A stretch of DNA of 32,000 nucleotides from Pseudoalteromonas tetraodonis (GCF_002310835.1 NZ_CP011041.1:1320001-1352000), one strand, 5' to 3'. Numbered from the stretch's first letter, positions 5,377-20,818 are shown. Made by a program: numbers and translations. Notes: generated from the sequence alone by a model not told the origin.

Positions 5377-5386
5377 TCACTCATCC

Positions 5387-5932
5387 TTATGACATTGCTG
5401 TGATGGCTGTGGCGTGGTAACCCCACCCATCTCGGGCATCTAAAATTTTAAAATTATTATTTTGATATTCACCTGGGAAAAAGACGATTAGCCGACCTTT
5501 TACTTCTTTTGCTATTTGCTCTACCAAGCCTGATACAGACGTAAACCCAAACAAAGTTCCACAACCAAGTAGAGCTACTACTGTGTTTTCATTTTGTTTT
5601 TCAGTATATTCTGACTTTAATTTAATAATTAGCTCTTCAGTAAAGTCTTCGTACAATCCAACTAAGTATTCTGGATCTTCGAAATAGGTTTCTTTATAGT
5701 CTTGCTCTGCCATCCAGTTTTCAAAGCTGTTAGTAATATCGAGTTGCAGCCAAGGGTGCCCACTTTGTGTTGCACTGGCTTCAAACTCGTCAATTCGAGC
5801 TCTTAGCTTTAATTCGTCTTCTTTGTTGTAAACAACAAAGATAGTACGTTCATCAGGTGAAACTGCTTTAGGCCAGGGAATGCTTATATGGCTGTCAAAG
5901 CTTTGCAATAATTTTGATAATCGGTCTGACAT
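5387..5932 (-). CDS. brxB: BREX protein BrxB (DUF1788 family)
   Basis: 181 aa. Its start codon directly abuts the brxA stop codon (5933-5935). Size, position and N-terminal sequence (SIPWPKAVSPDERTIFVVYNKEDELKLRARI) fit BrxB as I remember the family. Confidence 0.8.
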   Translation of the reverse strand: MSDRLSKLLQSFDSHISIPWPKAVSPDERTIFVVYNKEDELKLRARIDEFEASATQSGHPWLQLDITNSFENWMAEQDYKETYFEDPEYLVGLYEDFTEELIIKLKSEYTEKQNENTVVALLGCGTLFGFTSVSGLVEQIAKEVKGRLIVFFPGEYQNNNFKILDARDGWGYHATAITAMS

Positions 5933-6712
5933 TTAACCTTGCTCCTCGGCATTTGGAAGTTCTATATTCGGAAAGGTAACTTCTATCACTTCACTAATCT
6001 GTTTAAAGTTTATTAAACCTCTTAGTGACGCTCTGTGAGCTAACTCAAATAAATGCTCTTTATCTTGCGATAACATTTTGCACCAAAAGCTGTCGAAAAG
6101 TCGTTGGCCAGATAAACCATGGCAATGGGCTAAAAATAATGCATATGCGATATTTACATAGGTCGCTTTAGGCTGAGAGCGGTATTTTTTAGTTTTACCT
6201 TCAAGATAATTTGCTTGAGTCCATGTGCCATTAATATTTTGTGCAAATGACTTAAGTGATGCAGCACTAAAACGTTCTGGGTCGTCTTTAGCTAAATGTT
6301 GCTCGACTGTTTCTCTTGGCAAGTGTTCGCCTAATTGTAGTGACAGTATTACGCTAGCTGAATTTCTTAAAATAGGATCTCTTGCTACCGCTAATTGCAG
6401 TGCTAACATTGGCTGAGCATCTTCTGATAGTTCCCACCACTGACGGAAAACATTAAATAAAGGAATATCCATAGACATGCCATATAGATCTACAAGATGT
6501 CTAAAGGTTAATGAACGTGATTTTTCGGTTGGCTTATGCAGTATATTAAAGTTGATGATATCGTCTTCATAATTTTTTTTTGTTGCGCTTTCATCACGAG
6601 CGAAAAGAAGCTCTTTGAGCTCTTCAATCATCATACTTCTAGCTGAGTGAGCGCCATTTTTGCCAAATTTGAAGCCTATTTGGCTTAGTGTGTTTTCTTC
6701 AACCATGTTCAT
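5933..6712 (-). CDS. brxA: BREX protein BrxA (DUF1819 family)
   Basis: 259 aa and first structural gene of the operon. Its start overlaps the brxR stop by 4 nt (ATGA at 6709-6712). The call rests on position and length; the family name is from operon context rather than a motif I can verify. Confidence 0.7.
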   Translation of the reverse strand: MNMVEENTLSQIGFKFGKNGAHSARSMMIEELKELLFARDESATKKNYEDDIINFNILHKPTEKSRSLTFRHLVDLYGMSMDIPLFNVFRQWWELSEDAQPMLALQLAVARDPILRNSASVILSLQLGEHLPRETVEQHLAKDDPERFSAASLKSFAQNINGTWTQANYLEGKTKKYRSQPKATYVNIAYALFLAHCHGLSGQRLFDSFWCKMLSQDKEHLFELAHRASLRGLINFKQISEVIEVTFPNIELPNAEEQG

Positions 6713-7584
6713 TCCTGATAGCCTGAGGCTATCTCAATATCTTTAAGATTAAGTTGTGATTTATTGCTTAAATGCAGCTGGTAAATATTGCAGTTTAATG
6801 TGCCGTGGTTAGAACAGTCTACGTTCCATTGCCTAAGTAAATAACCCAATAGAGCGGCTCTTATTTCTAATTTTAATTGCCCATTCTCCATCGCGTAATC
6901 AAGCTCTATAGCTTTTGGGTATTTTAGCTTTGGATGCGGGGTTAAAATTATATCGTAAATGGTGTGCCATTGGGTGTCTTTATCTGCGGATTCTTCAGGT
7001 TTTATGTTAGGTTGCTGTATTTTTGGGCATTCAATGCGGGTAGTTACAAAGTCTCTAAATTGTTGCTTGGTTCTATCAAAAGCGCGTACATGCCAGCGAG
7101 CACCATTATTTACAATAGAGTGGGGTACTAATACCTTTGAAGTAGTACCTGAAGTTAGTGACGTATATTGGCACTCTATAGTGAGCTTAGACGTAATAGC
7201 ACGCATAAGAGTCGCGATTACTTCACTATTTGGGTGTATTAAGCGCGTTGCATCTTGGCAGTAGCTACTTGGCTGAACGCCACTAGACAGGCCATCACCA
7301 AAACCACGGCATAAAGCGCTGAGAATACTCTCAGCATTATGTTCGAACAAAGGTTTAAAGCTTTCTAAGCGGTGGTAACTTTTGGTTGTATGGCTTAATA
7401 CTAGATTTTGCGGTGCAAGTTCTTTATATGATGAAAAGTCACGAGTGCACGCGGCTAAGCCAGTTTTAAAACGCTGAATTAAATCAGCTCTTGCGACTTG
7501 GCCAAAGTACTGCAGATTAAAATCTATGAACGCTAAGCGTTCCCTCTGCGCATGTGTGAGTGCATCCAATGCGGTATTAGTCAT
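6709..7584 (-). CDS. brxR: WYL-domain transcriptional regulator, BrxR-like
   Basis: 291 aa. The N-terminus has a wHTH-like segment (THAQRERLAFIDFNLQYFGQVARADLIQRF). The centre has a WYL-type motif (GARWHVRAFDRTKQQFRDFVTTRI). It lies immediately upstream of brxA and is translationally coupled to it. Confidence 0.75.
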   Translation of the reverse strand: MTNTALDALTHAQRERLAFIDFNLQYFGQVARADLIQRFKTGLAACTRDFSSYKELAPQNLVLSHTTKSYHRLESFKPLFEHNAESILSALCRGFGDGLSSGVQPSSYCQDATRLIHPNSEVIATLMRAITSKLTIECQYTSLTSGTTSKVLVPHSIVNNGARWHVRAFDRTKQQFRDFVTTRIECPKIQQPNIKPEESADKDTQWHTIYDIILTPHPKLKYPKAIELDYAMENGQLKLEIRAALLGYLLRQWNVDCSNHGTLNCNIYQLHLSNKSQLNLKDIEIASGYQE

Positions 7585-7612
7585 AAATATACTAAATCAT
7601 TATTTTGTAGTA

Positions 7613-7640
7613 ACTATATCAGGCAAATGAAAAGATGCAA
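7613..7640 (-). promoter_or_regulatory. Putative sigma70-type promoter for brxR and the BREX operon
   Basis: On the minus strand: TTGCAT (7640-7635), a 16-nt spacer, then TATAGT (7618-7613), about 30 nt upstream of the brxR ATG. Two direct GTTAAT repeats 11 bp apart (7650-7655 and 7661-7666 on the plus strand) lie just upstream of the -35 element. Confidence 0.3.
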
Positions 7641-7690
7641 TCAAAATGAGTTAATGCCCGGTTAATAATAGATATGCTTTTAACACGACT

Positions 7691-9088
7691 TTAAATTTCT
7701 AGGTCACTAATAACCTTCATTTCATTAATTATACTGCTCCTTAAGCTCAAGCAAACTGTTTCAGAGTAACCGTCTGGCATTATATCTCTACTCAAAACTG
7801 GTAGTTTATTCAATGATTTAAATTTTTTTATAAGCTTACTCTCGAATTGGTAGATTAAATTTCCGTCATCATGATAAATATAATTAATAAGTATATGCTT
7901 TAGTAAAGTTTGTTTAGATTGTTGCTGCATTCTTGCAACCGGCTCTCTATTTGTAATACCTAGCTTTAAAGCAATAAGTTTATTTTTGCTGTAAAGTTCT
8001 TGTAGGTAAAAGTAAGCAGGTTTAGAGCGGTTAAAGCCACTTTCAGCACAATGTGGGCAAGCTGTTCCAGAAAAAATACAGTCAGGGTTAGTTTCCCATG
8101 TAAACGCTTCATCTTTTAAACACTGTAATAATATTCTACTTTTTACACCTCTTTCGAAGTTAGTAACAGGGCCAAGAAGCTTGAACTTGTCTTTCCCTAT
8201 CTCATTAATGCGATCAATTATTTCATCTATAGTGTAAACATATGAATTTGTGCATTTAGGGCATTGGCCACCTCTAAGTATGTTGTTTACAGATGGCGTC
8301 CAAGGGTTTCTAAATAAATGCCCATAACCATGAGTAGGGCACAATAGAACTACTTTTGTATGTTTAGACTTTTTCTTATCGTCAAATAGTAGCACTTTAT
8401 AATTTGTCTTTTTTTCTATTTGACTCTTATATTCATCTAGCGAAAAATTATACAAATTAGCGCATTTAGGGCAGCCATTCCCTCTGGTAATATCTTCGAA
8501 TCGGGGAACCCAAGGTGTTGCAAATTCATCACTTGGTCCGTGCTCTGCGCAACTGACAGCTATTCTGGTGTTTTTACCTTTGAAATCGGACTTTAAGCGA
8601 ATAAATTTGTATTTTGTATCGTTAACTAATTCTATCCACTCATCAATGGTTCGCTTATAAGTGCCCTTACATTTTGGACAGCCTCTATTGCGAATGATAT
8701 TAACTGCAGTGGGTTCCCATTTATTTGCATAAAGTTGACCTTCACCATGAATTTTACAAATTAGATTGAGCTTAGTTGAAGAGCCTTTAAATTCTCCAAT
8801 GAAGTTTTTAAACTTGAATCCTTTATCTTCGATAAGCTTTATCCATTCATCAGATGTATATATGTACTTGCCAGCACATTTTGGGCAGCCATAGCCATTT
8901 ATTATAGAAGAGGCAAGCGGTACCCATCTATTGCCAAACTTTGAGCCATCGCCATGCGTCGGGCATTTTAAAATAACTCGGTCATTTGATATTAATCTAT
9001 CGCTCATATAGTCTATAAGCTCAAATCTATCTTCAATTGCTTTGGTAAGTTGTCTATATTTTTCAACTCGTTTATCAGTTTTATTCAT
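7691..9088 (-). CDS. Protein with five tandem zinc-ribbon (CxxH-N22-CxxC) modules and a C-terminal GIY-YIG/T5orf172-like putative nuclease domain
   Basis: 465 aa. The metal-ligand pattern repeats every 69-70 aa: C42/H45/C68/C71, C111/H114/C137/C140, C180/H183/C206/C209 and C250/H253/C276/C279. A fifth copy is degenerate (C323...C344/C347). Each module carries a conserved W-x-P and G-CPKC. The tail KPAYFYLQELY...ALKLGITNREPVARMQQQ resembles the GIY...YIG...R core. The gene is visibly AT-rich compared with the BREX genes. Confidence 0.6.
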   Translation of the reverse strand: MNKTDKRVEKYRQLTKAIEDRFELIDYMSDRLISNDRVILKCPTHGDGSKFGNRWVPLASSIINGYGCPKCAGKYIYTSDEWIKLIEDKGFKFKNFIGEFKGSSTKLNLICKIHGEGQLYANKWEPTAVNIIRNRGCPKCKGTYKRTIDEWIELVNDTKYKFIRLKSDFKGKNTRIAVSCAEHGPSDEFATPWVPRFEDITRGNGCPKCANLYNFSLDEYKSQIEKKTNYKVLLFDDKKKSKHTKVVLLCPTHGYGHLFRNPWTPSVNNILRGGQCPKCTNSYVYTIDEIIDRINEIGKDKFKLLGPVTNFERGVKSRILLQCLKDEAFTWETNPDCIFSGTACPHCAESGFNRSKPAYFYLQELYSKNKLIALKLGITNREPVARMQQQSKQTLLKHILINYIYHDDGNLIYQFESKLIKKFKSLNKLPVLSRDIMPDGYSETVCLSLRSSIINEMKVISDLEI

Positions 9089-9161
9089 TATGTTCAGCCA
9101 TATAAGTCCTTTTAATAAGGCTAACTTACTGCTAAATCATGATTAAATCTACATTTGTTAG

Positions 9162-9347
9162 TTAAATTTCATCTCTTTTTCCAATCTTTTCACTTATCCA
9201 TTCTTCAACTTCACTTTCTACCCAGGCTACAGAGTTGCCACCTAGCTCGACCTTCATTGGAAATCCACCAGCGCTCATAAAGCGATAAACAGTTGAACGG
9301 CTTAAGCCTGTAATATGTAAAACTTCTTTTAATTTGATTAAACGCAT
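9162..9347 (-). CDS. alpA: AlpA-family phage/island transcriptional regulator (MerR-like HTH)
   Basis: 61 aa: MRLIKLKEVLHITGLSRSTVYRFMSAGGFPMKVELGGNSVAWVESEVEEWI. This is the classic AlpA/prophage CP4-57 regulatory protein signature. Confidence 0.85.
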   Translation of the reverse strand: MRLIKLKEVLHITGLSRSTVYRFMSAGGFPMKVELGGNSVAWVESEVEEWISEKIGKRDEI

Positions 9348-9472
9348 GGGATTTCTCCGGTTAGGTTATTAGTACATATCCTTTCCGGAGGTAGTAATTT
9401 TTTACTGAGGCGAAACAAAAACGTTAAGCACATACATCACTATTTTGCATAAACCATTAAGAGGGCATAACA

Positions 9473-9946
9473 ATGCAAAATAACAAGTCACTATACGAAT
9501 TTGATCACCCTGTAAGTGATGAACAAATACTTGAAGCTGCTGCTTACATAATCGCTCAAAAGCAATTTAGGCATGGGGCTTTAACATGCCCTAAAGACAG
9601 TGAAGAATATTTAAGGCATAAGCTGGCGTTGATTGAGCATGAGGTGTTTGCCGTCCTGTTCTTGGATAGCCAAAATCGCATACTTGAATATAAAGAGTTA
9701 TTTAGGGGGACTATTAACGCCGCAAGCGTATACCCACGAGAGGTAGTTAAAGAAGTATTAGCGCTAAATGCAGCATCTGTAATACTTGCGCACAATCATC
9801 CTTCAGGCGTCAGCACGCCATCACAGGCCGATAAACTTATTACCAGTAAATTACAGCAGGCGCTTAACCTAATTGATGTTTCGATAGTCGATCACATCAT
9901 TATTGGTGAAACCAGTTATTCATTTGCTGAGCATGGCTTAATTTAA
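9473..9946 (+). CDS. RadC-like JAB/MPN-domain protein
   Basis: 157 aa with the JAMM motif HNHPSG-x7-S-x2-D (AHNHPSGVSTPSQADKLIT). This is the island-type short RadC, as found in CP4-like islands and ICEs. Confidence 0.9.
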   Translation: MQNNKSLYEFDHPVSDEQILEAAAYIIAQKQFRHGALTCPKDSEEYLRHKLALIEHEVFAVLFLDSQNRILEYKELFRGTINAASVYPREVVKEVLALNAASVILAHNHPSGVSTPSQADKLITSKLQQALNLIDVSIVDHIIIGETSYSFAEHGLI

Positions 9947-9958
9947 AGGGAGTAGGGT

Positions 9959-10378
9959 ATGGCGATTAAAATAGAGCAAGTGCCAGGACTAAACGTGCCA
10001 GAGTCACTGTTTGATGTGATTGTAAATGCCATCACTAAACAAGGTGAATCGATAGGGAATGCGAGTAAGTTAACTTTGAATTTCCGTGATAAAGATTATA
10101 GCGCAGCAGCTGGGGGCTTTCACCCAGTCGAGGTTAGGCTAGAAAAACGCGGTATTGGTTGGGAGCTTGTATACATTACTGACTTTTCATACCAGGGCCG
10201 ACCGGATTTTGAGTTAGTAAAGGAGATTGATGTTTGCTTTGAAATTAAACGCGTGTATCACATGCTGGTGGGCTGGTTAAGTGAACGAGAGGGCAAGGAG
10301 CTTTTAACTTTATTTGTGACTAACTTTGTTGAATATTACAACACAGGCTGCTACCAAGTCATTATTTCAACAGAATAA
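9959..10378 (+). CDS. Hypothetical protein, DUF2787-like
   Basis: 139 aa, starting 12 nt after radC. The GGFHPVEVRLEK motif matches my recollection of DUF2787 proteins, which accompany RadC in Vibrio and Shewanella islands. The family name is from memory only. Confidence 0.5.
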   Translation: MAIKIEQVPGLNVPESLFDVIVNAITKQGESIGNASKLTLNFRDKDYSAAAGGFHPVEVRLEKRGIGWELVYITDFSYQGRPDFELVKEIDVCFEIKRVYHMLVGWLSEREGKELLTLFVTNFVEYYNTGCYQVIISTE

Positions 10379-10388
10379 GGAGTTGGCT

Positions 10389-10949
10389 ATGGCTGAAGTA
10401 CAGGCGATTAAGGACCTTGATACAGTAAAGTTAATCAGTTACTTGCTTGAAAAGCGGTGTTCTAAACAGATGAGCCATATTTGGAATATAGGTCTGAACT
10501 TGGCATTGCGCATATCTGATTTGTTGTCTGTTAAATTTACGGACATTCAAAATGACAGGTTACTTATATTTGAAAGTAAAACAGGCAAGCTTGCAGAGAT
10601 TAAGTTAAATCAAAAAGCATTAGCGTTTATCCATGAAGTACGAATCACTCACCCCAACCATGTTTACTTATTTCAATCGTATCGTAATCAACAGGCTAAA
10701 GGTTCACCACCACGGCCTTTATCTCGAAGGGCTGTAACAAGAGCATTTGCGTTAGTGGGTGAAGAGCTTAATTTAAAACTAGGCACTCACTCGATGCGGA
10801 AAACCCGAGGTTACCACCTCTACCATAAAACCCAAGACATCGCGCGTGTAATGAAGATGCTTCGCCATAGCTCGGAAGCAACAACACTGCGTTACATTGG
10901 CATAACCCAGGAGGAAATCGATAAAGACTTTGAAGAGTTAGAGCTATAA
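10389..10949 (+). CDS. Short tyrosine recombinase, catalytic domain only (phage-integrase family, FimB/FimE-sized)
   Basis: 186 aa from the ATG at 10389, which is preceded by AAGGAG (10377-10382). I prefer this start over the track start at 10326, which overlaps the upstream gene. A full catalytic set is recognisable: R in LALRISDLL, K in ESKTGK, HxxR in HSMRKTRG, H in LRHSS, and Y in TLRYIG. There is no N-terminal core-binding domain. Confidence 0.75.
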   Translation: MAEVQAIKDLDTVKLISYLLEKRCSKQMSHIWNIGLNLALRISDLLSVKFTDIQNDRLLIFESKTGKLAEIKLNQKALAFIHEVRITHPNHVYLFQSYRNQQAKGSPPRPLSRRAVTRAFALVGEELNLKLGTHSMRKTRGYHLYHKTQDIARVMKMLRHSSEATTLRYIGITQEEIDKDFEELEL

Positions 10950-10980: not shown

Positions 10981-11220
10981 ATGTCGTTAGAAAAAGCCGT
11001 TGCATGCGGTGCAGTAGGAAATGAAGTTTCTAAACAAATAACCGGTAGTTCTAAGCCATCACTCAGTAGAACAGCCATTGCTGTGAGCTCTGGTGCTGTA
11101 GCAGGCGCTACAGTATCCGGTGCAGTTGTCGTTGGCCTGGGTGTGGCGTCTGCACCAGTTACGGTGCCTTTAGCTGTTGCTAGTGGCTTGTTAGCAGGAG
11201 TCGCAAGTTTATTTGATTAG
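10981..11220 (+). CDS. Small Gly/Ala/Val-rich (glycine-zipper-like) predicted membrane protein
   Basis: 79 aa. An AGGAG site lies about 8 nt upstream of the ATG. The C-terminal 50 aa are hydrophobic with small-xxx-small repeats (AIAVSSGAVAGATVSGAVVVGLGVASAPVTVPLAVASGLLAGVASLF). It is the last gene before a strong terminator. Confidence 0.5.
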   Translation: MSLEKAVACGAVGNEVSKQITGSSKPSLSRTAIAVSSGAVAGATVSGAVVVGLGVASAPVTVPLAVASGLLAGVASLFD

Positions 11221-11410: not shown

Positions 11411-11992
11411 TCATCTTTGACTATAACCAAAACAACGGTGCCCTAAGCCATATTGTTTCGTATTAAGCTTTGCTAAATAACTAGCTCGTTTATAAAGACT
11501 GCTGTAATCCGCTTTAAAATTTGTATTGTTCGCGTCAAGGTAGTAATGAGCATTTTGAGGCAAGTGAACTAGTTGCATAGTTTCATCCAACGGTAAGCTC
11601 AACGCACTCGCCCAGGACTTAACTATTCGAGTAAACAAGTTATCGCTTTCTATATTTATTTTACCCGTACAGTGGTAACGGTCCTTATTGAAAAACAGTA
11701 CACAATGATAATGCTGTTGGTGAGCTTTGTTTTTCTCTCTAGTCCAAATATATCTAAAATTACATGGATGTGGAGTTTTACCATCACGAACTTTACGTTT
11801 TGTATCTGCTTTAATCTGCGCCTCAAGAGAAGCAATAAATCGTGTAATAATTTTATTGCTATCTAAATCAATTGTATTTGAATAAGCAGGTAGCCTTAAA
11901 TCAATTCTGACTGCAAACGTTCTTTTATGTTCACTACATGCAGCATGCATTACTTTCTCAATAGCATTTAAGTAGGGAATAACTAGTCGCTG
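11411..11992 (-). pseudogene. Inovirus Gp2 / YfjJ-YagK family protein, C-terminal 192 codons, separated from its start by an IS insertion
   Basis: The track ORF 11411..12022 begins with MSLWQTRGDS, which is encoded inside the IS left end. Native sequence starts at QRLVIPYLNAIEKVM...RTFAVRIDLRLP and contains an HUH-like HQQHYHCVLFF motif. Both are typical of Gp2/YfjJ-like proteins of CP4-type islands. Confidence 0.75.
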
Positions 11993-12042
11993 TGAATCGC
12001 CCCGTGTTTGCCAGAGACTCAATAACTTGAGAAACTGGAACT

Positions 12043-13328
<1,286 letters not shown>

Positions 13329-13367
13329 CTTAAACAAACTGGTCTCCGATGAACTCGGGGCGATTCA

Positions 13368-13445
13368 CTGTTCTACTCTAGCGAGTGTTTGATATTGCTT
13401 GTATGTAGGGTTGATTGTTACTGGGTATTGGGTTGGGTTATTCAT
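13368..13445 (-). pseudogene. N-terminal 26 codons of the IS-disrupted Gp2/YfjJ-like gene
   Basis: The reverse complement reads atgaataacccaacc...gtagaacag, which translates to MNNPTQYPVTINPTYKQYQTLARVEQ. Its last codon, cag, is the target-site duplication. Deleting the IS and one ctg copy joins it in frame to RLVIPYLNA..., restoring a 218-aa ORF. Confidence 0.75.
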
Positions 13446-13641
13446 TCTCTTTATCCTGATTAGTATTGGTTCATATCAGGTGTATGAGTTGTAGTTTTTT
13501 AATTTGAATTTGTTGTGATAATGATTTAGATGCTAGTAACTCTAATAAATATTACCAAACCGAGGATTGGGCTTGAAAAAAGTAAGCACGTATCAATGGA
13601 ACATTTTTTTTTAGCGCTATACATACAAGCGTTATTCTCAA

Positions 13642-14997
13642 TTAATTCTGCTCTGAAGTTAAAGTGTCTTTGTAAAATGCTTCAAATACTTTTGGATCAA
13701 TATGAAATATATTGTAATTCCCATTTTTCAGTTGGCTTTTTGAGTCCATAAACGTCACTGTTCCATCATTACTATTAACTTTTTCACAGAGGTCTAGATT
13801 GGTAAATAAGATTAAGTTGTAAATTGATGTGACATCATAAAACTTTACCTTCGAATGAGTGTTTTCTATGAAGGCATTTATATAGTTACCTTTTTTCTTG
13901 AGTGAGTGTATAGAGCTAAGGTATTTCTCTATGTCCTCACTTACTTTCGGAGTGTCTTTTAGCGAATGAATTATAGAATATAAAATGTAATGAATATGTA
14001 TATTAGCTAGATTTCTTATCAGGTACGAAGTTCCATGGCCTAAATTAGCGGCGCTTATTTCATAATCTGCAGGGCTGAAAATATGGCTAAAAGCATCTTT
14101 TTGGCTAACAGGTTTAATGTTAGTTCCACCATTTAGTAAATATGATAACCCCATAGAAACTAATTTAAGAAGGACTCCATCGAAGTAGCTGAAAACTTCT
14201 TTAGGCTGCTGACACAAAAAATTAAAGTCATGTTCAAGTGAATCTACTTCAAATCTTAATAATCTTAAAAAAATATTTTCACGTATTTTTTCAGAGAAGA
14301 AAAAATCTATCAGTGCCCCAGAGAAGTTATATATTTTTTTACGATTCGCATATGATTCTAAATTAGTCAATGAGGGAAATGTGAACAGGTATATGAATTT
14401 GTTATGATTATCTCCCATTATTTTAAAGCAAGACGAACGCTTAAAGTTGTTACCTCCAGTTTTAACAACGTTCCTTTTATTCTTGTCTTCAACTTTTTTT
14501 AAAGTACACCCTTTTATGGCTTTTTGAATGAATTTAAGGTCAATTAATTGAGAGATAGCAGTTTTAACCTCAGCATCTTTTAACCCGCACGCTTTAGCAA
14601 TGTTAGATAGTGTAAAATTAACAACATATCCAAATTCATCTTGGTTTAATACAAAGAAACACCATACCAACTTTATAGGAACTCTTAATTCGAGTCCTTC
14701 TAACTTTGCCTGCATTTCAGTACATTTTAATCGATGAATTTCGTCATGACCATTGTAAATAAAAGTATATGAAAGTGTTGGTCGTCCAGGCTTAAAGTGC
14801 TCAACTTCGAGTTTTGAAATTGCATTAATTTCTTGTAGCTCTTCTATTACTTTTTTAAATTTATTGTGTGGGCATCCTAATTTTATGAGATCAGCTTTAG
14901 ATAATTCGTCTCCAATTATTTTCCCTGTAATTAAGCGAATTAACACCCATTTTTTATATGCTGATAGACTAGCTGTTGAAGTAAAAAACTTATTCAT
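13642..14997 (-). CDS. Hypothetical protein with two winged-helix-like segments and an uncharacterised C-terminal half
   Basis: 451 aa in a very AT-rich gene. wHTH-like stretches are LIKLGCPHNKFKKVIEELQEINAISKLEVEHFKPGRPTLSY and FTLSNIAKACGLKDAEVKTAISQLIDLKFIQK. I see no P-loop or recognisable catalytic motif. Confidence 0.55.
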   Translation of the reverse strand: MNKFFTSTASLSAYKKWVLIRLITGKIIGDELSKADLIKLGCPHNKFKKVIEELQEINAISKLEVEHFKPGRPTLSYTFIYNGHDEIHRLKCTEMQAKLEGLELRVPIKLVWCFFVLNQDEFGYVVNFTLSNIAKACGLKDAEVKTAISQLIDLKFIQKAIKGCTLKKVEDKNKRNVVKTGGNNFKRSSCFKIMGDNHNKFIYLFTFPSLTNLESYANRKKIYNFSGALIDFFFSEKIRENIFLRLLRFEVDSLEHDFNFLCQQPKEVFSYFDGVLLKLVSMGLSYLLNGGTNIKPVSQKDAFSHIFSPADYEISAANLGHGTSYLIRNLANIHIHYILYSIIHSLKDTPKVSEDIEKYLSSIHSLKKKGNYINAFIENTHSKVKFYDVTSIYNLILFTNLDLCEKVNSNDGTVTFMDSKSQLKNGNYNIFHIDPKVFEAFYKDTLTSEQN

Positions 14998-15046
14998 TTA
15001 ATTACCATGCGCCATATTTGTTGCAGATATAGTAGCCAGTATGCCT

Positions 15047-15087
15047 ATTAAATGACAGAAAAACACCCTGTTTTTCTGTCATTTAAT
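15047..15087. repeat. Perfect 19-bp inverted repeat with a 3-nt spacer
   Basis: attaaatgacagaaaaaca (15047-15065), then ccc, then tgtttttctgtcatttaat (15069-15087). It lies 50-90 nt upstream of the 451-aa gene's start, in the divergent intergenic region. Confidence 0.85.
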
Positions 15088-15103
15088 TATTAGTTGTTAT
15101 TTA

Positions 15104-15267
15104 ATCTAAATTAGAGGTTATTTAGATTTTTAATTTATTTAAAATAATCTAATTTAGAGGCTAACTGAGGTTTTAATATAGTACCTAAGGGCGTTGACTG
15201 AAATTTTGATGTGAGAACTAATAAATATCTAACTTAGATTTTAAATAGTGTCTAGTTGTACATCTAA
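15104..15267. promoter_or_regulatory. Array of ATCTAA/TTAGAT half-sites (iteron- or operator-like)
   Basis: Two 15-mers match at 14/15 positions: aatctaaattagagg (15103-15117) and aatctaatttagagg (15146-15160). There is a palindrome atctaa-c-ttagat (15227-15239). Additional ATCTAA copies sit at 15262 and a TTAGAT at 15122. By eye I count six core copies in about 165 bp. Confidence 0.55.
15194..15222 (+). promoter_or_regulatory. Putative promoter for the 176-aa gene
   Basis: TTGACT (15194-15199), a 17-nt spacer, then ACTAAT (15217-15222). The atctaacttagat palindrome lies right at the predicted transcription start. Confidence 0.3.
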
Positions 15268-15370
15268 TAAGAAGAGGTTTAGTTTCTGACTTCAAAGTAG
15301 TTGCTTATAGATTAGTGTTGGATTATTGTTTTGATAACAGCGACAAGCGCTCAAGCACAGGGATGAATTA

Positions 15371-15901
15371 ATGACAGATTGGATTGATAGCAACAATATT
15401 TTGAAGTGGGTTAAGGAAGATAACGAAGACTTGCACAACTGGCTAGCTTATCGATATTCAAGTTATGTTGAATACTTTGAATCTGAAAATCCTACATTAA
15501 ATAGTTTTATTAGACTTATGATTAAAAAAAATAGCTCTAATGAAGATACGCAAAGAATTCAGCTTCAGAAGCTTCATAAAGCCTGGAAAAGCTATGAAAG
15601 AGGCTTAAAAAATACATCTAATAAAGTGTGTAAACTTCAGCTTGAGGTATCCAAATCAGCTCGTGGTAAACTACAAATTTTAAGTGAGGCCGATGGAATT
15701 TCACAATCTAAATATATTGAGAAATTGATTACTTACGCTCATAAAAACCCTAAGCTGATTTCCAAAAATTCAAAAGTACAAGAGCAATACAAACTTAACC
15801 AGAGAACTTTTGATGATAGCACTGAGATTAAAGCCATAAGAGAAGACTTATCGACTATTGATGATAAGATTACTAGGTTATTGTCTGCTTTGGTAGAGTA
15901 G
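15371..15901 (+). CDS. Hypothetical protein with a central ribbon-helix-helix-like segment
   Basis: 176 aa and AT-rich. KLQLEVSKSARGKLQILSEADGISQSKYIEKLI has the beta-strand, helix, helix pattern of CopG/Arc-type RHH proteins. The C-terminus looks like a coiled coil. Confidence 0.5.
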   Translation: MTDWIDSNNILKWVKEDNEDLHNWLAYRYSSYVEYFESENPTLNSFIRLMIKKNSSNEDTQRIQLQKLHKAWKSYERGLKNTSNKVCKLQLEVSKSARGKLQILSEADGISQSKYIEKLITYAHKNPKLISKNSKVQEQYKLNQRTFDDSTEIKAIREDLSTIDDKITRLLSALVE

Positions 15902-16030
15902 GGCAAGCTGAGTTTTTTAGACCGCTTTGGTTATTTTTAAAATAAATGGCCTTTAGTATACCTGTTAGTATTCCTTGATTTTATCTATAAAGGTATTGTT
16001 GCTTTTAATCAGTGGCTTATTGGTTTTATA

Positions 16031-16051
16031 TGAATCCCTCTCTCTCCACCA
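16031..16051 (+). other. Orphan tRNA 3'-end fragment; putative att site and island boundary
   Basis: tGAATCCCTCTCTCTCCACCA parses as the end of a T-loop (GAAT), a T-stem 3' strand (CCCTC), an acceptor 3' strand (TCTCTCC), discriminator A and CCA. No matching 5' half (GGAGAGA...) exists upstream, so this is a fragment and not a gene. Confidence 0.6.
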
Positions 16052-16063
16052 TTATTCTATATT

Positions 16064-16088
16064 AGGACGTCTCAAGGCGTCCTTTTTT
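16064..16088 (+). terminator. Rho-independent terminator downstream of the tRNA fragment
   Basis: The stem aggacg (16064-16069) pairs with cgtcct (16078-16083), and a T6 run follows. Its position 13 nt after ...CCA is what is expected for the native terminator of the targeted tRNA gene. Confidence 0.55.
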
Positions 16089-16103
16089 GTGCCTGTAATA
16101 ACA

Positions 16104-17741
16104 CTAAACGTGTTGGCGTTTGTTTTTACGTTGGTGCTTTAATGTATACATTCGTTGGTCGGCTAAGGTTAAGCAGGCTTTGTAGTCATTACATTCCTCA
16201 CTACTTGCTATGCCATAGCTCAGGCCTGATAGGGGCCAGTTTTTCTGTACTTGTTGATGAATATAATTTAACGATTCGTTGATGCTCAGGGTGAGTTGGC
16301 CGAGCTGTTGTGCTGATTTAACGTTACACACACAAATAAACTCATCACCGCCAGTTCTGCATACCTCACCTTTATCGGCTAACGCGCTTTTAATTAACCG
16401 TGTAACTTCAATGAGTAGTTTGTCACCGTGAGCATGACCTAGGTGATCGTTAACGCTTTTAATATTGTCGCAATCTATAAACACTATGAGGTAAAAATTA
16501 TCTAAGTTATCGAGCACTTGTTGTAATTGCAGCCGGTTTCCTACTTTGGTGAGTGGATCTATGCGTGATAACTCTAGCGCTTTTATATAATTGTTTTGCT
16601 TTATTTTTAGCCATTCAGATAAAGAAAGCAAAATACAGATACAATCAATGGCCAGAGCAATAAGCACCCATAATTCAGGTGAACTTATTTCTATTAAATT
16701 TAGGTGCGATAAAATAAAAATAACCAAGGATAAGCTATAAACAAGGTTGCCAGTTAAAAAGTATTTCGCTCTAAAGTCCTTCATCCCCAGCATTGTAAAG
16801 CCAAGCTTTAAGCTTAAATACACCCAAATTGCAGCGAGGAAGTGAGCTAAATAGAACACCCAATGGAAGGATAAAAATAGGTTTAAAAAACCACAGGCAA
16901 GTGCCGTTATGGAAAAGTACTTTAAAAATCGGCTAATACCAGAACGGGTATGTTGGTCAAAGTTAAATAAGTAATAGGCAAATGAGCTGGCAGAGGCAAT
17001 AGCAAAGGCAAAAATATACATGCCAAAGTAATGGGTGTTAATCGCATGGTAATTAAAAAGTAGCGCAGCTATCCCCGCTGCGAATGCCCAACCAATGCCA
17101 TGTAACCCTATGTAACCTGCACAAAATAATGCCACGCGATGTCGTGTTTTAAAAAACATGATCAAGGCCATGCAAGCCAAGGTCAGCATTATCGTTATAG
17201 ACACTAAGCTTAATGAATTGATATAAAACTGAAGTTTAACAAACCTAGATTGAGGAATAACGTTAATGCTGACAGGTTTGGCAAAGTGCTTAGCATTAAC
17301 ATAAAGCCATAAAACACCGTGTGAATTAGCTTCTAGTTGTAATTCAAAAGCTCGGCTGTGCATTACAATGGCTGATGGGATGGCACTATCTTGTGAAAAG
17401 TCAGCGACTTTTCTGATCCCACTAGCATCTTGATAAAAAGCAACGCCACTATCTAAGTAATTAACTTGGGGTATTATATACCAGCGTCCAGCGCTCGTTG
17501 TGGTTAAACTAATTTTTGCTATTGCACTGCCATTCGCACTGTACAGCGAAGTGATGGGAGTATTAACATTGTCATAGGCATTAACGAGTTGCTCACCTTG
17601 GGTTGGTTTAGCTAAATCTACTTGATGCCAAATAGCTGATTTTAATTGTAAGCTGTCATTTTCGTTTAGTGTTACAGCAGATGCACTAAAACCAATGGTT
17701 TGTAGTAGCAAACAACATATTAAATTGAAAGTGTACCGCAT
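16104..17741 (-). CDS. Diguanylate cyclase with 7TMR-DISM extracellular and 7-TM domains and a C-terminal GGDEF domain
   Basis: 545 aa. It has a signal-like N-terminus, a periplasmic domain of about 170 aa, seven hydrophobic helices, then RIDPLTKVGNR...RTGGDEFICV. I see no RxxD inhibitory site in the position upstream of GGDEF. Confidence 0.85.
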   Translation of the reverse strand: MRYTFNLICCLLLQTIGFSASAVTLNENDSLQLKSAIWHQVDLAKPTQGEQLVNAYDNVNTPITSLYSANGSAIAKISLTTTSAGRWYIIPQVNYLDSGVAFYQDASGIRKVADFSQDSAIPSAIVMHSRAFELQLEANSHGVLWLYVNAKHFAKPVSINVIPQSRFVKLQFYINSLSLVSITIMLTLACMALIMFFKTRHRVALFCAGYIGLHGIGWAFAAGIAALLFNYHAINTHYFGMYIFAFAIASASSFAYYLFNFDQHTRSGISRFLKYFSITALACGFLNLFLSFHWVFYLAHFLAAIWVYLSLKLGFTMLGMKDFRAKYFLTGNLVYSLSLVIFILSHLNLIEISSPELWVLIALAIDCICILLSLSEWLKIKQNNYIKALELSRIDPLTKVGNRLQLQQVLDNLDNFYLIVFIDCDNIKSVNDHLGHAHGDKLLIEVTRLIKSALADKGEVCRTGGDEFICVCNVKSAQQLGQLTLSINESLNYIHQQVQKNWPLSGLSYGIASSEECNDYKACLTLADQRMYTLKHQRKNKRQHV

Positions 17742-17906
17742 GTAATACCTAAGTTAGTGATCCTTAAAAATTATACTGCATTTTTAGCAGAATAATTATC
17801 GTTATGACTGTTTCAGCGTATTTTTACTTAAAATGTGGCTGTTAACTTTATATCGCTCCAAGAAGATAAATAAGTAAGTGGCAAATTATTACGCTACAGT
17901 ACGTTG

Positions 17907-18788
17907 TTATCGACGCACGTCTTTTGGTGCGCCACCTTTTGGCCAGTCATCCGCTTTATTGGCAAAAATAGGGCGTTCTAAATGTGAAAAGTAATAAGCA
18001 ATATCAATAGCTTGTTGCTCGGTTAACATGCCTTCTTGGCCCAATGGCATATTTCCTTTAATAAATGCCGCTGCGGTGTAAGTGCGTGCCATACCTGCAC
18101 CATCATTAAACGACTGACTGCCGGCAATGGCTGGGAACATGTAAGTATTATTAGGATATAAGCCTTGACCGTCTAGTTGGTGACAACTTGCACAGTGCTG
18201 AACGTAAAGAGTTTTTCCGTTATCGGCGTTTGGTATTAGCTCTTTATTAATAGCGACAAAGCCCGTGTTTCCTTGCAGGTCGTCTTTGGTTTTTATATTT
18301 TGTGATAAAAAGTTCATGTAGCTGACAATAGCCTGCATTGGCACTGAATTAGTAGGCAGTGGCTGACCGTTCATTGAGCGTTGAAAACAGCCGTTAATTC
18401 TGTCTTCAATGGTGTTTATTTGTGCATTGCGAGAGCGATATTTAGGGTATACCACATTCATGCCCACATAAGGCGCGGCTTTGGCTACACGCCCTTCATT
18501 AAGATGGCAAGTGCTACAATTGAGCTTATTATTTACGTTATTGGGAAGTTGTTTATAGGTATCAATAATTAATAAGCGCCCATAACGAATTAAATCCGAC
18601 TCAGGGCTGGCATCGAGCTCATTAATAGCGGGCGTTACTAGGGTGTTAGGGTGATTTGCTGATAAGTTTATAATTGTGGGCGCATTACTTAACGCTTTTT
18701 GCACGAGTGATTGTGTTTGCGCTTCTTGTGAGCATACGGGCAAAGTAAATAACGTCGCGAATACAACACTAAAATGAACTTTAAACAT
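17907..18788 (-). CDS. tsdA: Periplasmic diheme cytochrome c, TsdA-like (putative thiosulfate dehydrogenase/tetrathionate reductase)
   Basis: 293 aa with a signal peptide and two CxxCH motifs (CSTCH, CASCH). A conserved Cys in RINGCFQRSMNG lies about 40 aa after heme 1, which is the candidate His/Cys ligation. A K-G-N-M-P motif follows heme 2, matching the Lys/Asn/Met ligand region described for TsdA enzymes. Confidence 0.6.
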   Translation of the reverse strand: MFKVHFSVVFATLFTLPVCSQEAQTQSLVQKALSNAPTIINLSANHPNTLVTPAINELDASPESDLIRYGRLLIIDTYKQLPNNVNNKLNCSTCHLNEGRVAKAAPYVGMNVVYPKYRSRNAQINTIEDRINGCFQRSMNGQPLPTNSVPMQAIVSYMNFLSQNIKTKDDLQGNTGFVAINKELIPNADNGKTLYVQHCASCHQLDGQGLYPNNTYMFPAIAGSQSFNDGAGMARTYTAAAFIKGNMPLGQEGMLTEQQAIDIAYYFSHLERPIFANKADDWPKGGAPKDVRR

Positions 18789-19086
18789 AATTAAAACCTA
18801 AATAAAAAAGAGTATTTAAACGACAGTGCTCATTATTGCTGCAATGTGGCTAAGTGTTTTTAATACCGCTGAATTGGTAAGATGAATCAGTAAACCGTGA
18901 CCCGCTATCATAAAAATATAGTTAATGATTACTTAAAGGGTTAATAATTTAGTTAGTTTAATTATTGAACAGCAGTGCTTAGGTGGAGGTGTTATTAGTT
19001 TGTGATTAATTTATATAAGTTTGGTATGCATAGCCAAATGATTATGAACCATAACGCTATGCAAAGTGAGGTGTTTTTTGACTATT

Positions 19087-20199
19087 TTATTTACAGTTAT
19101 AATCCATAATTTTGTGTGATAAAGCGCTAAGTATGTCCACTACTTTAAAACTTGCTTGCTCCATAAGAGATACTTTTTCTACAGCAGTATTGATATCGCC
19201 TAATTGGAATGCTTCTAAAGCAGCAAAGCCATTCTTATGGACATCTTCATGTGGTTGCTCTAATGCTTTAAAGTCGTTAATGCTTGAATATTTTAATGCA
19301 CCTTCACCTTGGTAATACCATTTACCTAAACGACACATGGTATGATCAGAAAAGTCTTCTGCAGTCTTATTTGATTGCCCTAAAATGACTTTATAAATAT
19401 CGTATTTCCATACAATGTGATCCATTTTTACTGTTTGAATAAATGCATCGGCACTTGAATTAACAATAACGCTATACATATTTTGTGATAGTTCAACCAC
19501 CTTTTTAGCGGTAGCATCAATTTCTGATGAGCTATTTGCAATGCCATCACTTTCTTCGCTAACGTTAGTAATGTTAGTTACAACGCTTTGCATTTGCTCA
19601 TTGACCTTAGCTATTAAATTAGAGATCTCGTTAGATGCATCAGAAGAGCGCTGAGCGAGCGTTCTTACTTCATCTGCCACAACAGCAAAGCCTCGTCCTT
19701 GCTCTCCGGCTCTAGCGGCCTCGATGGCCGCATTAAGTGCAAGTAAATTTGTTTGATCAGAAATCCCTTTAATTATGTTTACAAAATCATTAATTCCGAT
19801 TGTTACTGACTGCAATTCTTTAACGGATTTAGTGGCTGATTTTGTATCTCTTGAGATATTATGTGTTGACGATGAAGTCGTTGCTAACATATCTAAAATT
19901 GTATCAAGTAATTCTTGGGATGACTTAAATGACGTAATATCATTAATTAGTTTATGTGAAGTTGAGGCTAAGCTTTCTCTGATGTCACTAATTAAATCAG
20001 ATGACTGTAATGATAATGTGTTTAATTCACGCTGTTTTACAAAGGCTGTATCATTTGCTATTTCATTGTCGTTTTGTTGTGATTGCTCGCTGTTTGCTGC
20101 TAACAATTGCGCTTCAAGCTTTTCATTGGTTTTTTTTAATTGAATTAACTCGTTATTTAACTCATTAATTTTGTTTTTATATTTTGAATTGAACAGCAT
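19087..20199 (-). CDS. Soluble methyl-accepting chemotaxis protein with a C-terminal CZB (chemoreceptor zinc-binding) domain, TlpD-like
   Basis: 370 aa with no TM segment. The signalling hairpin is [38 protein letters not shown] signatures are HIVWKYDIY...[11 protein letters not shown]...HEDVH. Confidence 0.85.
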
Positions 20200-20428
20200 G
20201 TAGACCCCAATTTAAACACAGAAAATAAACGTATATTTTTTATTAAATTTACCTGAACATTGATTACTTTATTCGATTTTTTACAGGGGTGGAATTGACG
20301 TCCACCCAGGTCGATTTTTATAAAAGTAAGTTACAACACTATAATAGATGCTTTATAACCTTTTGGTAAATAAACTTTTCTTTTAATGCTTATAATAAGC
20401 TTGTTTAAGGTGAACACTGCTTTAGAAG

Positions 20429-20818
20429 TTAGTACTTCCTAATTGATTTACTCAACTGGGCTTGAAACTCATCAGGGAATAAAATTGTGCCGTCGTCTTC
20501 TTCGGTAGGGAACACGGCCACCAGTAAGTCGTCTTCTTCAAGGCCAGGTGTCCAGCGGCTAAACCAATCGTTTGTTGGAATTGCTTTAGGTGTACAGCCT
20601 TGCCATTCGCCGGTTGCCCAGGCTTGTGCGAACTCTCGTGTTGGCCATACCGGCACGCAATCGTCGTCCTCGTTAGTGAGCATTACGCAGCCGTCGTCAT
20701 CGTTTAAAATCCACACTTGCTTAAATTGCTGCACGGTTTCGTACATGTATGCGAGTCGTTTTTTTGCGCCAAGGCCTAAAATTACGTCGTCTTGCTTTGA
20801 TAAATTATCGGTGGTCAT
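20429..20818 (-). CDS. Small acidic protein, DUF2750-like
   Basis: 129 aa. VWILNDDDGCVMLTNEDDDCVPVWPTREFAQAW resembles DUF2750 as I recall it. The family name is from memory. Confidence 0.45.
   Translation of the reverse strand: MTTDNLSKQDDVILGLGAKKRLAYMYETVQQFKQVWILNDDDGCVMLTNEDDDCVPVWPTREFAQAWATGEWQGCTPKAIPTNDWFSRWTPGLEEDDLLVAVFPTEEDDGTILFPDEFQAQLSKSIRKY

Follow-up and report, generated by a model that had tools for sequence, protein, structure and literature searches.

A divergent gene pair in the core of a Pseudoalteromonas genomic island as a candidate control and replication-initiation cassette

The subject of this analysis is a stretch of 32,000 nucleotides from Pseudoalteromonas tetraodonis (GCF_002310835.1, NZ_CP011041.1:1320001-1352000), referred to here as the window, in which positions are counted from the first letter. 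The window carries a genomic island with an alpA, radC and yfjJ backbone, and within the conserved core of this island lie two AT-rich genes that are transcribed divergently, away from one another, and that encode proteins of 451 and 176 amino acids (aa). As judged from their sequences and predicted structures, the two genes appear to form a DNA-binding module, conserved and confined to the genus, that has an operator array of its own. What we tentatively favour, whilst holding it short of probable, is that the pair supplies a CopG-like repressor and an O/Rep-like protein that binds an origin, and that through these replication of the island is controlled. The three parts of the cassette are as follows.

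13642-14997, minus strand: gene for the 451-aa tandem winged-helix protein, intact, ATG start (six-frame list of open reading frames, ORFs)
14998-15370, no strand: divergent control region (spacer), 373 bp, guanine-plus-cytosine (GC) content 0.29
15371-15901, plus strand: gene for the 176-aa protein, the centre of which resembles the ribbon-helix-helix of CopG, ATG start (six-frame ORF list)

The two genes and their products

A first-pass annotation of the window, made from its sequence alone, had singled out the two divergent genes for their low GC content, and both this observation and the ORFs that it delimited were exact. The region 13642-15901 has a GC content of 0.312, relative to 0.390 for the whole window, no 2260-bp sliding window being lower (0.8th percentile), and among 24 ORFs compared the lowest values belong to the 451-aa and 176-aa genes.

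Homologs of the 451-aa protein are few and taxonomically confined. A search of 5.8 billion proteins retrieved 32 clusters or homologs at 33-90% identity, a full hidden Markov model scan of 1.84 billion representatives gave 18 members, and one further relative came from a second, word-indexed search that started from distant members. All members came from Pseudoalteromonas or from marine metagenomes, and those with a named host were all Pseudoalteromonas. The 176-aa family comprises 21 clusters or homologs at 60-99% identity. Besides the window, 15 further distinct loci were examined (L001, L005, L011-L016, L018, L020, L021, L023, L024, L026 and, in part, L025). The first-pass annotation had proposed a functional two-gene module and had named a survey of co-occurrence among the means of checking it; wherever the flanking sequence sufficed, in all 16 loci, the two genes lay side by side and pointed apart, and this arrangement persisted at only ~20% identity (P0058, P0064 and P0061), where the partner proteins measure 207, 198 and 222 aa and the layout is kept. 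Every locus examined lay on a chromosome or else on an unplaced metagenome contig of the same gene order. Homologs found on contigs of 2-8 kb had raised the possibility of a small-plasmid origin, which was rejected, since these contigs turned out to be pieces of that chromosomal arrangement, split during assembly at the variable cargo. Both genes are under purifying selection, with ratios of non-synonymous to synonymous substitution rates (dN/dS) of 0.38-0.45 for the 451-aa gene and 0.20-0.30 for the 176-aa gene, compared to 0.16 for yfjJ.

The domain organization of the 451-aa protein was taken from an AlphaFold2 model (31 family sequences; pLDDT 82, pTM 0.85).

14761-14961, minus strand: winged helix 1, residues ~13-79 (AlphaFold2 helices H13-25, H34-39 and H44-56, strands E60-65 and E74-79)
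14500-14682, minus strand: winged helix 2, the HTH_36 domain, residues ~106-166 (AlphaFold2 helices H106-117, H130-137 and H141-153, strands E157-161 and E164-166)
13654-14445, minus strand: C-terminal domain, residues ~185-448 (~260 aa), swappable between loci, with no Pfam, PDB or Foldseek match

Two winged helices had been anticipated in the first ~170 residues, and the model contains exactly these, both canonical, at residues ~13-79 and ~106-166. The second coincides with a Pfam HTH_36 match on residues 109-157 (E 3.8e-6; 27 bits, just over the cut-off of 25) that is found in 23 of the 31 family members, and similarity to known proteins at the sequence level is limited to one winged helix. 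In winged helix 1 the residues C42, N45, K46, V50, E53, L54, G71, R72 and P73 are invariant throughout the family. Past the winged helices, the model consists of a short beta unit, a helical bundle (residues 216-364) and a C-terminal sheet and helix (375-446). The earlier description of this C-terminal region as devoid of a recognizable motif still stands: neither a Walker A motif nor a transmembrane segment occurs in the 451-aa protein, and no nuclease, NTPase or other effector motif was found in either protein. Beyond HTH_36, nothing significant was returned for the 451-aa protein from Pfam, NCBIfam, PHROGs, PADLOC, PDB sequences, PLSDB or INPHARED, and a Foldseek search of the PDB with the whole model gave nothing below E 1e-3, its list being made up of generic winged-helix proteins (RPC82/62, MarR, RepE). 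The profile, PDB, Foldseek, PLSDB and INPHARED searches thus bear out the view that no characterized single-gene family claims this protein.

The central segment of the 176-aa protein is likely to be a ribbon-helix-helix, an assignment made from comparisons of sequence profiles.

15632-15745, plus strand: putative ribbon-helix-helix segment, residues 88-125, KLQLEVSKSARGKLQILSEADGISQSKYIEKLITYAHK (sub-profile against the PDB)

When a profile of residues 84-130 that included the distant partner proteins was compared with the PDB, the best match was CopG (1b01/2cpg; E 0.007, 39 of 45 residues), followed by the CopG-like regulator Reg576 (E 0.076), with MazE7 matched weakly (E 1.3). A comparison with CopG by hhalign aligned the same residues at E 0.031, but with a probability of only 1.6%. 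The sequence pattern of the fold is present, in that a strand (KLQLEV) is followed by helix A (SKSARGKLQILSEA), a turn (D-G-I-S-Q-S) and helix B (KYIEKLITYA); the segment K88-K125 is almost invariant across the family, and the distant partner proteins keep the strand-helix-helix pattern (INVELS...LSRSEFISMLI). Matches to profile libraries all fell below threshold, both for the whole 176-aa protein (Pfam RHH_3, E 0.064, 13.7 bits against a cut-off of 21.6; the NCBIfam RepA/CopB replication regulator, E 0.014) and across its family (RHH_3 in 7 of 20 members, RepB-RCR_reg in 4 of 20, RHH_10 in 1 of 20). The N-terminal helical domain (residues 1-80) was modelled at pLDDT ~90, and neither this domain nor the C-terminal helix had any match; the monomer model retrieved nothing from the PDB by Foldseek, nor did PADLOC-DB hold a match to the protein. 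The strand-helix-helix segment that the first-pass annotation had compared to CopG/Arc repressors therefore receives only moderate support, the CopG match being offset by an RHH_3 score below threshold and by a monomer model that draws the segment as helix at low confidence, and the coiled-coil tail that it had described is modelled as a helix with a pLDDT of only 42-58.

The control region and the mosaic evolution of the cassette

The spacer had been described as a repeat-dense control region of ~370 bp; it measures 373 bp and contains the following palindromes.

15047-15087, no strand: perfect palindrome with 19-nt arms, centred on AACACCCTGTT
15105-15115, no strand: operator-like palindrome TCTAAATTAGA (palindrome search)
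15148-15158, no strand: operator-like palindrome TCTAATTTAGA, overlapping the -35-like TTTAGA of a promoter-like site
15228-15238, no strand: operator-like palindrome TCTAACTTAGA (palindrome search)

Three exact copies of the palindrome TCTAAnTTAGA lie in the spacer, whereas the other 31.6 kb contain just one. When up to one mismatch was allowed the window had 8 matches compared to 2.1 expected, a number that none of 100 shuffles reached. The promoter-like site is on the plus strand (15153-15182) and faces the 176-aa gene. Across loci, AATTAG/CTAATT occurs at 2.7-15 per kb in spacers and at 0.8-1.7 per kb elsewhere, and CTAAATTAG-type motifs are enriched in every close-family spacer, being arranged as palindromes in the window and as 12-bp tandem arrays in other loci. 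The 12-bp unit CTAAATTAGCTG is repeated in tandem 5.7 times in L013 (9781-9848) and ~3 times in L015 and L012, and is not tandem in the window, such that copy number ranges from 0 to 5.7 between loci. A multi-locus alignment of the spacers resolved into conserved blocks beside each gene and a central repeat array that expands and contracts.

We infer that the CTAAATTAG-type repeats are sites of the 176-aa protein, because their 12-bp period fits a ribbon-helix-helix protein and is too short for a monomer with two winged helices. With a 12-bp spacing, each turn of the helix could accommodate one ribbon-helix-helix dimer, as in ParR/parC, MetJ and CopG operators. In L018 and L021 the CTAAATTAG-type motif is replaced by ATAAATAT/ATATTTAT repeats, along with a changed ribbon strand (AINVEL).

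The 11-mer AACACCCTGTT behaves differently from these repeats. Of the 21 locus records retrieved, 16 (~nine distinct places) contain a single exact copy, which lies 62-77 bp upstream of the start codon of the 451-aa gene. Its palindromic arms co-vary (AAAACA/TGTTTT versus ATAACA/TGTTAT), and in the window only, the CCC centre is inverted relative to the 451-aa gene, with arms that are perfect over 19 nt. Distant loci, the proteins of which are ~20% identical, retain AACACCTGTT in its place, and AlpA is ~70% identical in these loci. The palindrome was considered as a site of one of the two proteins but is not assignable to either, as it remains constant while both diverge; on the same grounds its reader is probably another, better conserved factor (such as AlpA, YfjJ or a host protein), or else the element is part of the core promoter.

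Relative to the surrounding backbone, the two proteins change rapidly. Identities to the window were 83-99% for RadC, 92-99% for the recombinase and 72-78% for YfjJ, compared to 38-72% for the 176-aa protein, 44-62% for the N-terminus of the 451-aa protein and 19-69% for its C-terminus. N- and C-terminal identities of the 451-aa protein are uncoupled, the two halves having recombined separately, and its C-terminal domain falls into two length classes, corresponding to proteins of ~450 aa and ~398 aa. Between the window and L011, the 451-aa protein is 90% identical (synonymous divergence, dS, of 0.15) and the 176-aa protein 72% (dS 0.65), a disparity which indicates that the spacer holds a recombination breakpoint. 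Clean co-variation of the 176-aa protein with the 451-aa N-terminus was likewise considered and rejected, for the two track each other in seven loci and L011 breaks the pattern; linkage of the two proteins is therefore not absolute. The pair is a mosaic and is the fastest-evolving cassette inside a conserved backbone. Immunity regions and the specificity modules of initiators and origins both evolve as mosaic, fast-changing cassettes.

Replication initiation and the competing explanations

If the pair does control replication of the island, ribbon-helix-helix dimers of the 176-aa protein would occupy the CTAAATTAG-type repeats, whether palindromes as in the window or 12-bp arrays as elsewhere, and since these repeats lie over the putative divergent promoters, such binding would set the expression of both the 176-aa gene itself and the 451-aa gene. 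The 451-aa protein would place its two winged helices on the same AT-rich region, in the manner of phage O proteins or of HTH_36-type plasmid initiators, and its exchangeable C-terminal domain could then recruit either the replisome of a host or helper or the neighbouring YfjJ, a putative HUH-type nickase. Recruitment of such a partner would start replication of the excised element.

We favour an initiator over a mere regulator on three grounds. Firstly, the annotated matches of the 451-aa protein are weak but consistently replication-flavoured. All four of its PHROG matches are replication-initiation families (E 0.012-0.43), among them the O-like phrog_678 (E 0.012); the NCBIfam profile TIGR01610 phage_O_Nterm was matched at E 0.17; and Rep3_C was matched on winged helix 2 in 5 of the 31 family members (best E 0.0049, below threshold). 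Foldseek matches of the model in BFVD were borderline (E 1-3e-3, probability 0.96-1.0, ~200-390 aligned columns), and those of ~200 or more columns span at least both winged helices. The top BFVD match is uncharacterized, and the best named matches are mostly a 'Helix-turn-helix domain protein', a 'Replication protein O' (E 1.3e-3, TM 0.38) and a 'Replication initiator protein'. Secondly, the 451-aa gene, which lies ~200 bp upstream of yfjJ, stands where a replication gene is found in E. coli CP4-57, and apart from the HUH-like YfjJ the 6.4-kb core offers no further candidate for replication. Thirdly, the AT-rich region of variable repeats is joined to a protein with O-like modular evolution.

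Comparison with characterized initiators yields likenesses and departures in each case. HTH_36 proteins serve as a Rep type in small Paracoccus plasmids (PMC6209633) and occur in the replication region of Stx phages (PMC8951638). The 451-aa protein resembles lambda O and the HTH_36 plasmid initiators in its HTH_36 match just above the cut-off, in its weak O-like and initiator matches in PHROGs, NCBIfam and BFVD, in the combination of an N-terminal DNA-binding part with an exchangeable C-terminal part, and in the AT-rich repeats that adjoin its gene. It departs from the lambda O type in that no iterons lie inside the gene, the next gene is yfjJ with no P/DnaC-like helicase loader, and the C-terminal domain is unrelated to anything known. 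In lambdoid O proteins the N-terminus is origin-specific and the C-terminus partner-specific. With the Rep_3 initiators (RepE of F, pi of R6K, TrfA) it shares two tandem winged helices and the weak Rep3_C matches, but it is ~200 aa longer. The CopG-RepB system of the rolling-circle plasmid pMV158, in which a ribbon-helix-helix repressor is paired with an HUH initiator, offers a parallel for the 176-aa protein, the central segment of which aligns over the whole 45-aa CopG fold; here too a likely ribbon-helix-helix protein stands beside replication-type genes, including the HUH-like YfjJ, with repeated operators over the promoters. Unlike CopG, the ribbon-helix-helix here is embedded in 176 aa, being preceded by a helical domain of 85 aa and followed by a helix, and the genes are divergent rather than in one operon, are chromosomal, and have the 451-aa gene placed between regulator and HUH gene.

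Several observations weigh against an initiator and its origin. Excision or replication of the element has never been observed, and the cassette may no longer work in the window, where an insertion sequence breaks yfjJ. The 451-aa protein has no Rep_3 Pfam match and is poorly similar to RepE (2z9o; E 0.057, TM 0.30), with the Rep protein of 8ac8 matched at E 0.12. The repeats are palindromic or have a 12-bp period, as opposed to the 17-22-bp direct iterons of Rep_3 systems; no direct repeats were found in 13365-15000, inside or downstream of the 451-aa gene, and no DnaA box with up to one mismatch in 13300-16100. In distant relatives only 157 bp separate the two genes, which is tight for an origin, and the most conserved cis element, AACACCCTGTT, is the one that stays invariant as both proteins diverge. 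The ribbon-helix-helix assignment is below the Pfam threshold, and the AlphaFold2 monomer draws residues 58-107 as a single helix (pLDDT 60-67 over residues 81-100). Finally, tblastn detected no 451-aa homolog in 72,556 PLSDB plasmids, and no relative was present in INPHARED phages (tblastn) or IMG/VR viral contigs; a phage or virome origin was rejected on the last two results. The Rep-like initiator that had been put forward at first pass consequently retains HTH_36, the weak PHROG, Rep3_C and BFVD matches and a position equivalent to that of yfjI in CP4-57 (see below), and loses the iterons, the DnaA boxes and any occurrence on plasmids.

The most serious competitor is a purely transcriptional switch of the immunity type, as in the Stl/Str pair of Staphylococcus aureus pathogenicity islands (SaPIs) or the CI/Cro pair of phages, in which neither protein would take part in replication. 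The 451-aa protein would then be a master regulator acting on operators in the spacer, with a C-terminal domain that senses a phage or host signal, and the 176-aa protein its counter-regulator. We regard this as possible though on the doubtful side, and the switch of a satellite-like island suggested in the first-pass annotation remains a live rival. Divergent genes with palindromic operators over promoter-like sites are what such a switch would look like, the two alternative C-terminal domains on a conserved DNA-binding N-terminus would fit a sensor, and the 157-bp spacers of the distant relatives suit an operator better than an origin. The pair is also the most rapidly evolving and most mosaic part of the conserved core, with a recombination breakpoint in its spacer, and immunity regions and Stl proteins evolve fast and as mosaics. 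It resembles Stl/Str in being a divergent pair, central to a small island, that has palindromic operators, a DNA-binding N-terminus on a variable C-terminus and the highest divergence in the element; in place of the lambda-CI-type helix-turn-helix of Stl, it has winged helices and a ribbon-helix-helix. Related island classes are phage satellites (I55, bioRxiv 10.1101/2024.08.29.610337; PICMI, PMC10803314). Counting against a switch are the annotated weak matches of the 451-aa protein, all of which are replication initiators and not repressors, and the position of its gene in the slot of a replication gene. Moreover, no sensor or ligand-binding fold was recognized in the C-terminal domain when the whole model was searched against the PDB and BFVD with Foldseek, and IMG/VR viral contigs hold no relatives.

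A two-gene anti-phage defence or abortive-infection system, in which a ribbon-helix-helix repressor would govern a 451-aa sensor or effector, is very unlikely. The island is rich in defence genes, with BREX beside the core in the window and restriction-modification and other cargo elsewhere, and low GC, fast evolution and an uncharacterized C-terminal domain would be in keeping with such a system. The pair, however, belongs to the invariant backbone while the surrounding defence genes turn over, and a bare, cargo-free core (L023) still keeps it. No effector motif and no meaningful PADLOC match were found (the sole match of the 451-aa protein was RT_UG32; E 0.048, 10 bits), and both proteins are predicted to be DNA binders. 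The repressor and effector module entertained at first pass is disfavoured by these results. Least credible of all is a plasmid-type stability module, be it a toxin-antitoxin system with the 451-aa protein as toxin or a ParR/ParG-like centromere binder on the repeat array: ribbon-helix-helix proteins are common as antitoxins and centromere binders, MazE7 is among the weak matches of the 176-aa protein, and there is a likeness between the 12-bp tandem arrays and the 11-bp parC iterons, but the genes are divergent, unlike co-transcribed toxin-antitoxin pairs, DNA-binding domains rather than a toxin fold make up what is recognizable of the 451-aa protein, and the core contains no ParA or ParM ATPase.

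The island core and related elements

The cassette terminates a conserved core of ~6.4 kb, the order of which in the window is alpA, radC, DUF2787, a 186-aa recombinase, a 79-aa ORF, a yfjJ/Gp2-like gene, the 451-aa gene and the 176-aa gene. This order is the same in all loci except L020, and the pair is thereby linked to alpA and yfjJ (Gp2-like) islands, a linkage that the first-pass annotation had proposed to survey. The L020 locus is a 4.7-kb metagenome contig that encodes a 357-aa relative and a divergent 222-aa partner, then alpA and then a Gp3-like gene (PF18897), with no yfjJ. The other features of the core and its left flank in the window are listed here.

1897-9088: BREX-type cluster beside alpA (BrxC-like, BrxB, a 259-aa gene in the position of BrxA, WYL/BrxR regulator), running off the left end of the window
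7691-9088: CapR-domain zinc-finger protein, in the BREX region beside alpA
9162-9347, minus strand: alpA, 61 aa, at the opposite end of the core (translation; Pfam Phage_AlpA recorded for orthologs elsewhere)
10389-10949, plus strand: 186-aa protein consisting of a tyrosine-recombinase catalytic domain only (Pfam Phage_integrase, profile positions 26-169 of 172)
10981-11220, plus strand: conserved 79-aa hydrophobic ORF rich in Gly, Ala and Val, its GC of 0.49 being the highest in the window, 68-95% identical across loci
11411-11992, minus strand: 3' part of the yfjJ/Gp2-like gene, HUH-like (Pfam YagK_YfjJ_C, E 1.3e-54), its 5' end severed by an insertion sequence
11993-13364, plus strand: IS3-family insertion sequence within yfjJ (boundaries by blastn against L011)

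The IS3-family element contains orfA (12043-12429) and orfB (12432-13328) with an ALIL frameshift pseudoknot (RF01497) at 12387-12503; it has inserted ~75 nt into the 5' end of yfjJ and is missing from all other loci. Pseudoalteromonas YfjJ is 33% identical to that of E. coli K-12 (E 2e-36), with H-Y-H-hydrophobic and Y-x-x-K motifs conserved, which suggests, at the level of sequence, that an HUH-type nickase may form part of the backbone of YfjJ islands. The YfjJ/YagK regions compared were 11411-12022 of the window, 11574-12230 of L014 and yfjJ of E. coli K-12 (L022, 6548-7174). YfjJ/YagK proteins also have a weak match to REP_ORF2-G2P. The 186-aa protein, at 92-99% identity across loci, is the only recombinase in the bare core.

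Variable defence cargo adjoins alpA, consisting of BREX with BrxR in the window and of SNF2/BrxR, kinase or helicase genes elsewhere. Cargo may also lie beyond the 176-aa gene, as with type I restriction-modification and Cas_NE0113 in L014 or ThiF/DUF4407/Cas2 in L001, and some genomes pass from the 176-aa gene directly to chromosomal genes. In L023, a 3.8-Mb Pseudoalteromonas chromosome, the core is bare: ~6.4 kb (4159-10531), bounded by alpA and the 176-aa gene, carry no defence genes as cargo. The DUF2787 gene of this core is truncated, and an additional insertion separates yfjJ from the 451-like gene; the core is flanked by HxlR and CMD/AraC/DUF2750 genes, and its 176-aa gene abuts chromosomal genes.

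Loci with long flanks have a DUF2750-TetR-OYE-TonB flank in common, which places the element at a single chromosomal location in many Pseudoalteromonas. Between the 176-aa gene and the conserved DUF2750-TetR-OYE flank, 16104-20460 of the window (GGDEF, cytochrome c, MCP-CZB) is strain-variable, with other genes in L012, L016, L023 and L026 and only the GGDEF gene shared with L013, so that this side too is a variable zone. No tRNA, tmRNA or other RNA gene that could have served as an integration target is present in the window, the sole Rfam match being the IS3 frameshift element. The first-pass annotation had situated the pair between the Gp2/YfjJ-like gene and the island boundary: an edge next to the 176-aa gene is plausible given L023, but the IS3-family element intervenes on one side and cargo lies beyond the 176-aa gene in other loci.

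The backbone of alpA, radC and a yfjJ/Gp2-like gene with adjoining defence cargo is that of the CP4-57-type islands of E. coli and the I55-type islands of Pseudomonas. Pseudomonas islands with intY, alpA, RadC, a Gp2-like gene and an HTH protein carry defence systems, and the I55 island is transduced as a satellite by a jumbo phage (bioRxiv 10.1101/2024.08.29.610337). In E. coli CP4-57 the order is alpA, yfjI (DUF3987), yfjJ and then the defence genes abpBA, with 152 bp between yfjI and yfjJ. Both CP4-57 and the PICMI minimal satellites of Vibrionaceae, which have a similarly small core, carry a DUF3987 primase-like gene upstream of yfjJ where an unrelated 451-aa gene is found here; DUF3987 proteins are the primases that PICMI satellites need in order to replicate (PMC10803314). 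The possibility that the 451-aa protein is homologous to YfjI/DUF3987 was considered and rejected (no Pfam match, hhalign probability 0.13%), such that position alone is shared. Another departure from CP4-57, I55 and PICMI is that the core has no full-length integrase, only the 186-aa catalytic-domain protein, and the divergent ribbon-helix-helix partner is without a counterpart in the published descriptions consulted. The island class is therefore known and the gene pair is not, and the initial impression that no described system matches holds for the two proteins but not for the island that carries them.

A bolder proposal goes beyond replication control as such, and we consider it improbable: the 451-aa protein may found a new initiator family, with two winged helices and a novel, swappable partner-recruiting domain, that works with the HUH-type YfjJ under a CopG-like repressor to replicate a ~6.4-kb PICMI-like satellite core without a DUF3987 primase, this core being the fixed anchor of a Pseudoalteromonas defence hotspot. 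Were that so, swaps of the C-terminal domain would track the specificity of helper phage or host replisome.

Islands of the alpA/radC/Gp2-YfjJ-like kind are widespread carriers of phage-defence systems, as exemplified by CP4-57 and the I55-type islands. The pair described here would belong to a familiar kind, the control and initiator circuitry of mobile elements, and not embody a new principle; within a very small conserved core, no other gene stands out as a regulator or initiator, and the pair takes the place of the DUF3987 primase that other such islands have at that position. Should it prove to be only a local regulator, it would represent ordinary, genus-restricted control circuitry of a mobile element. 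As a replication and control module, it would provide a handle on whether the Pseudoalteromonas islands are active phage satellites, give a role to the uncharacterized neighbourhood of YfjJ, and add a new initiator architecture.

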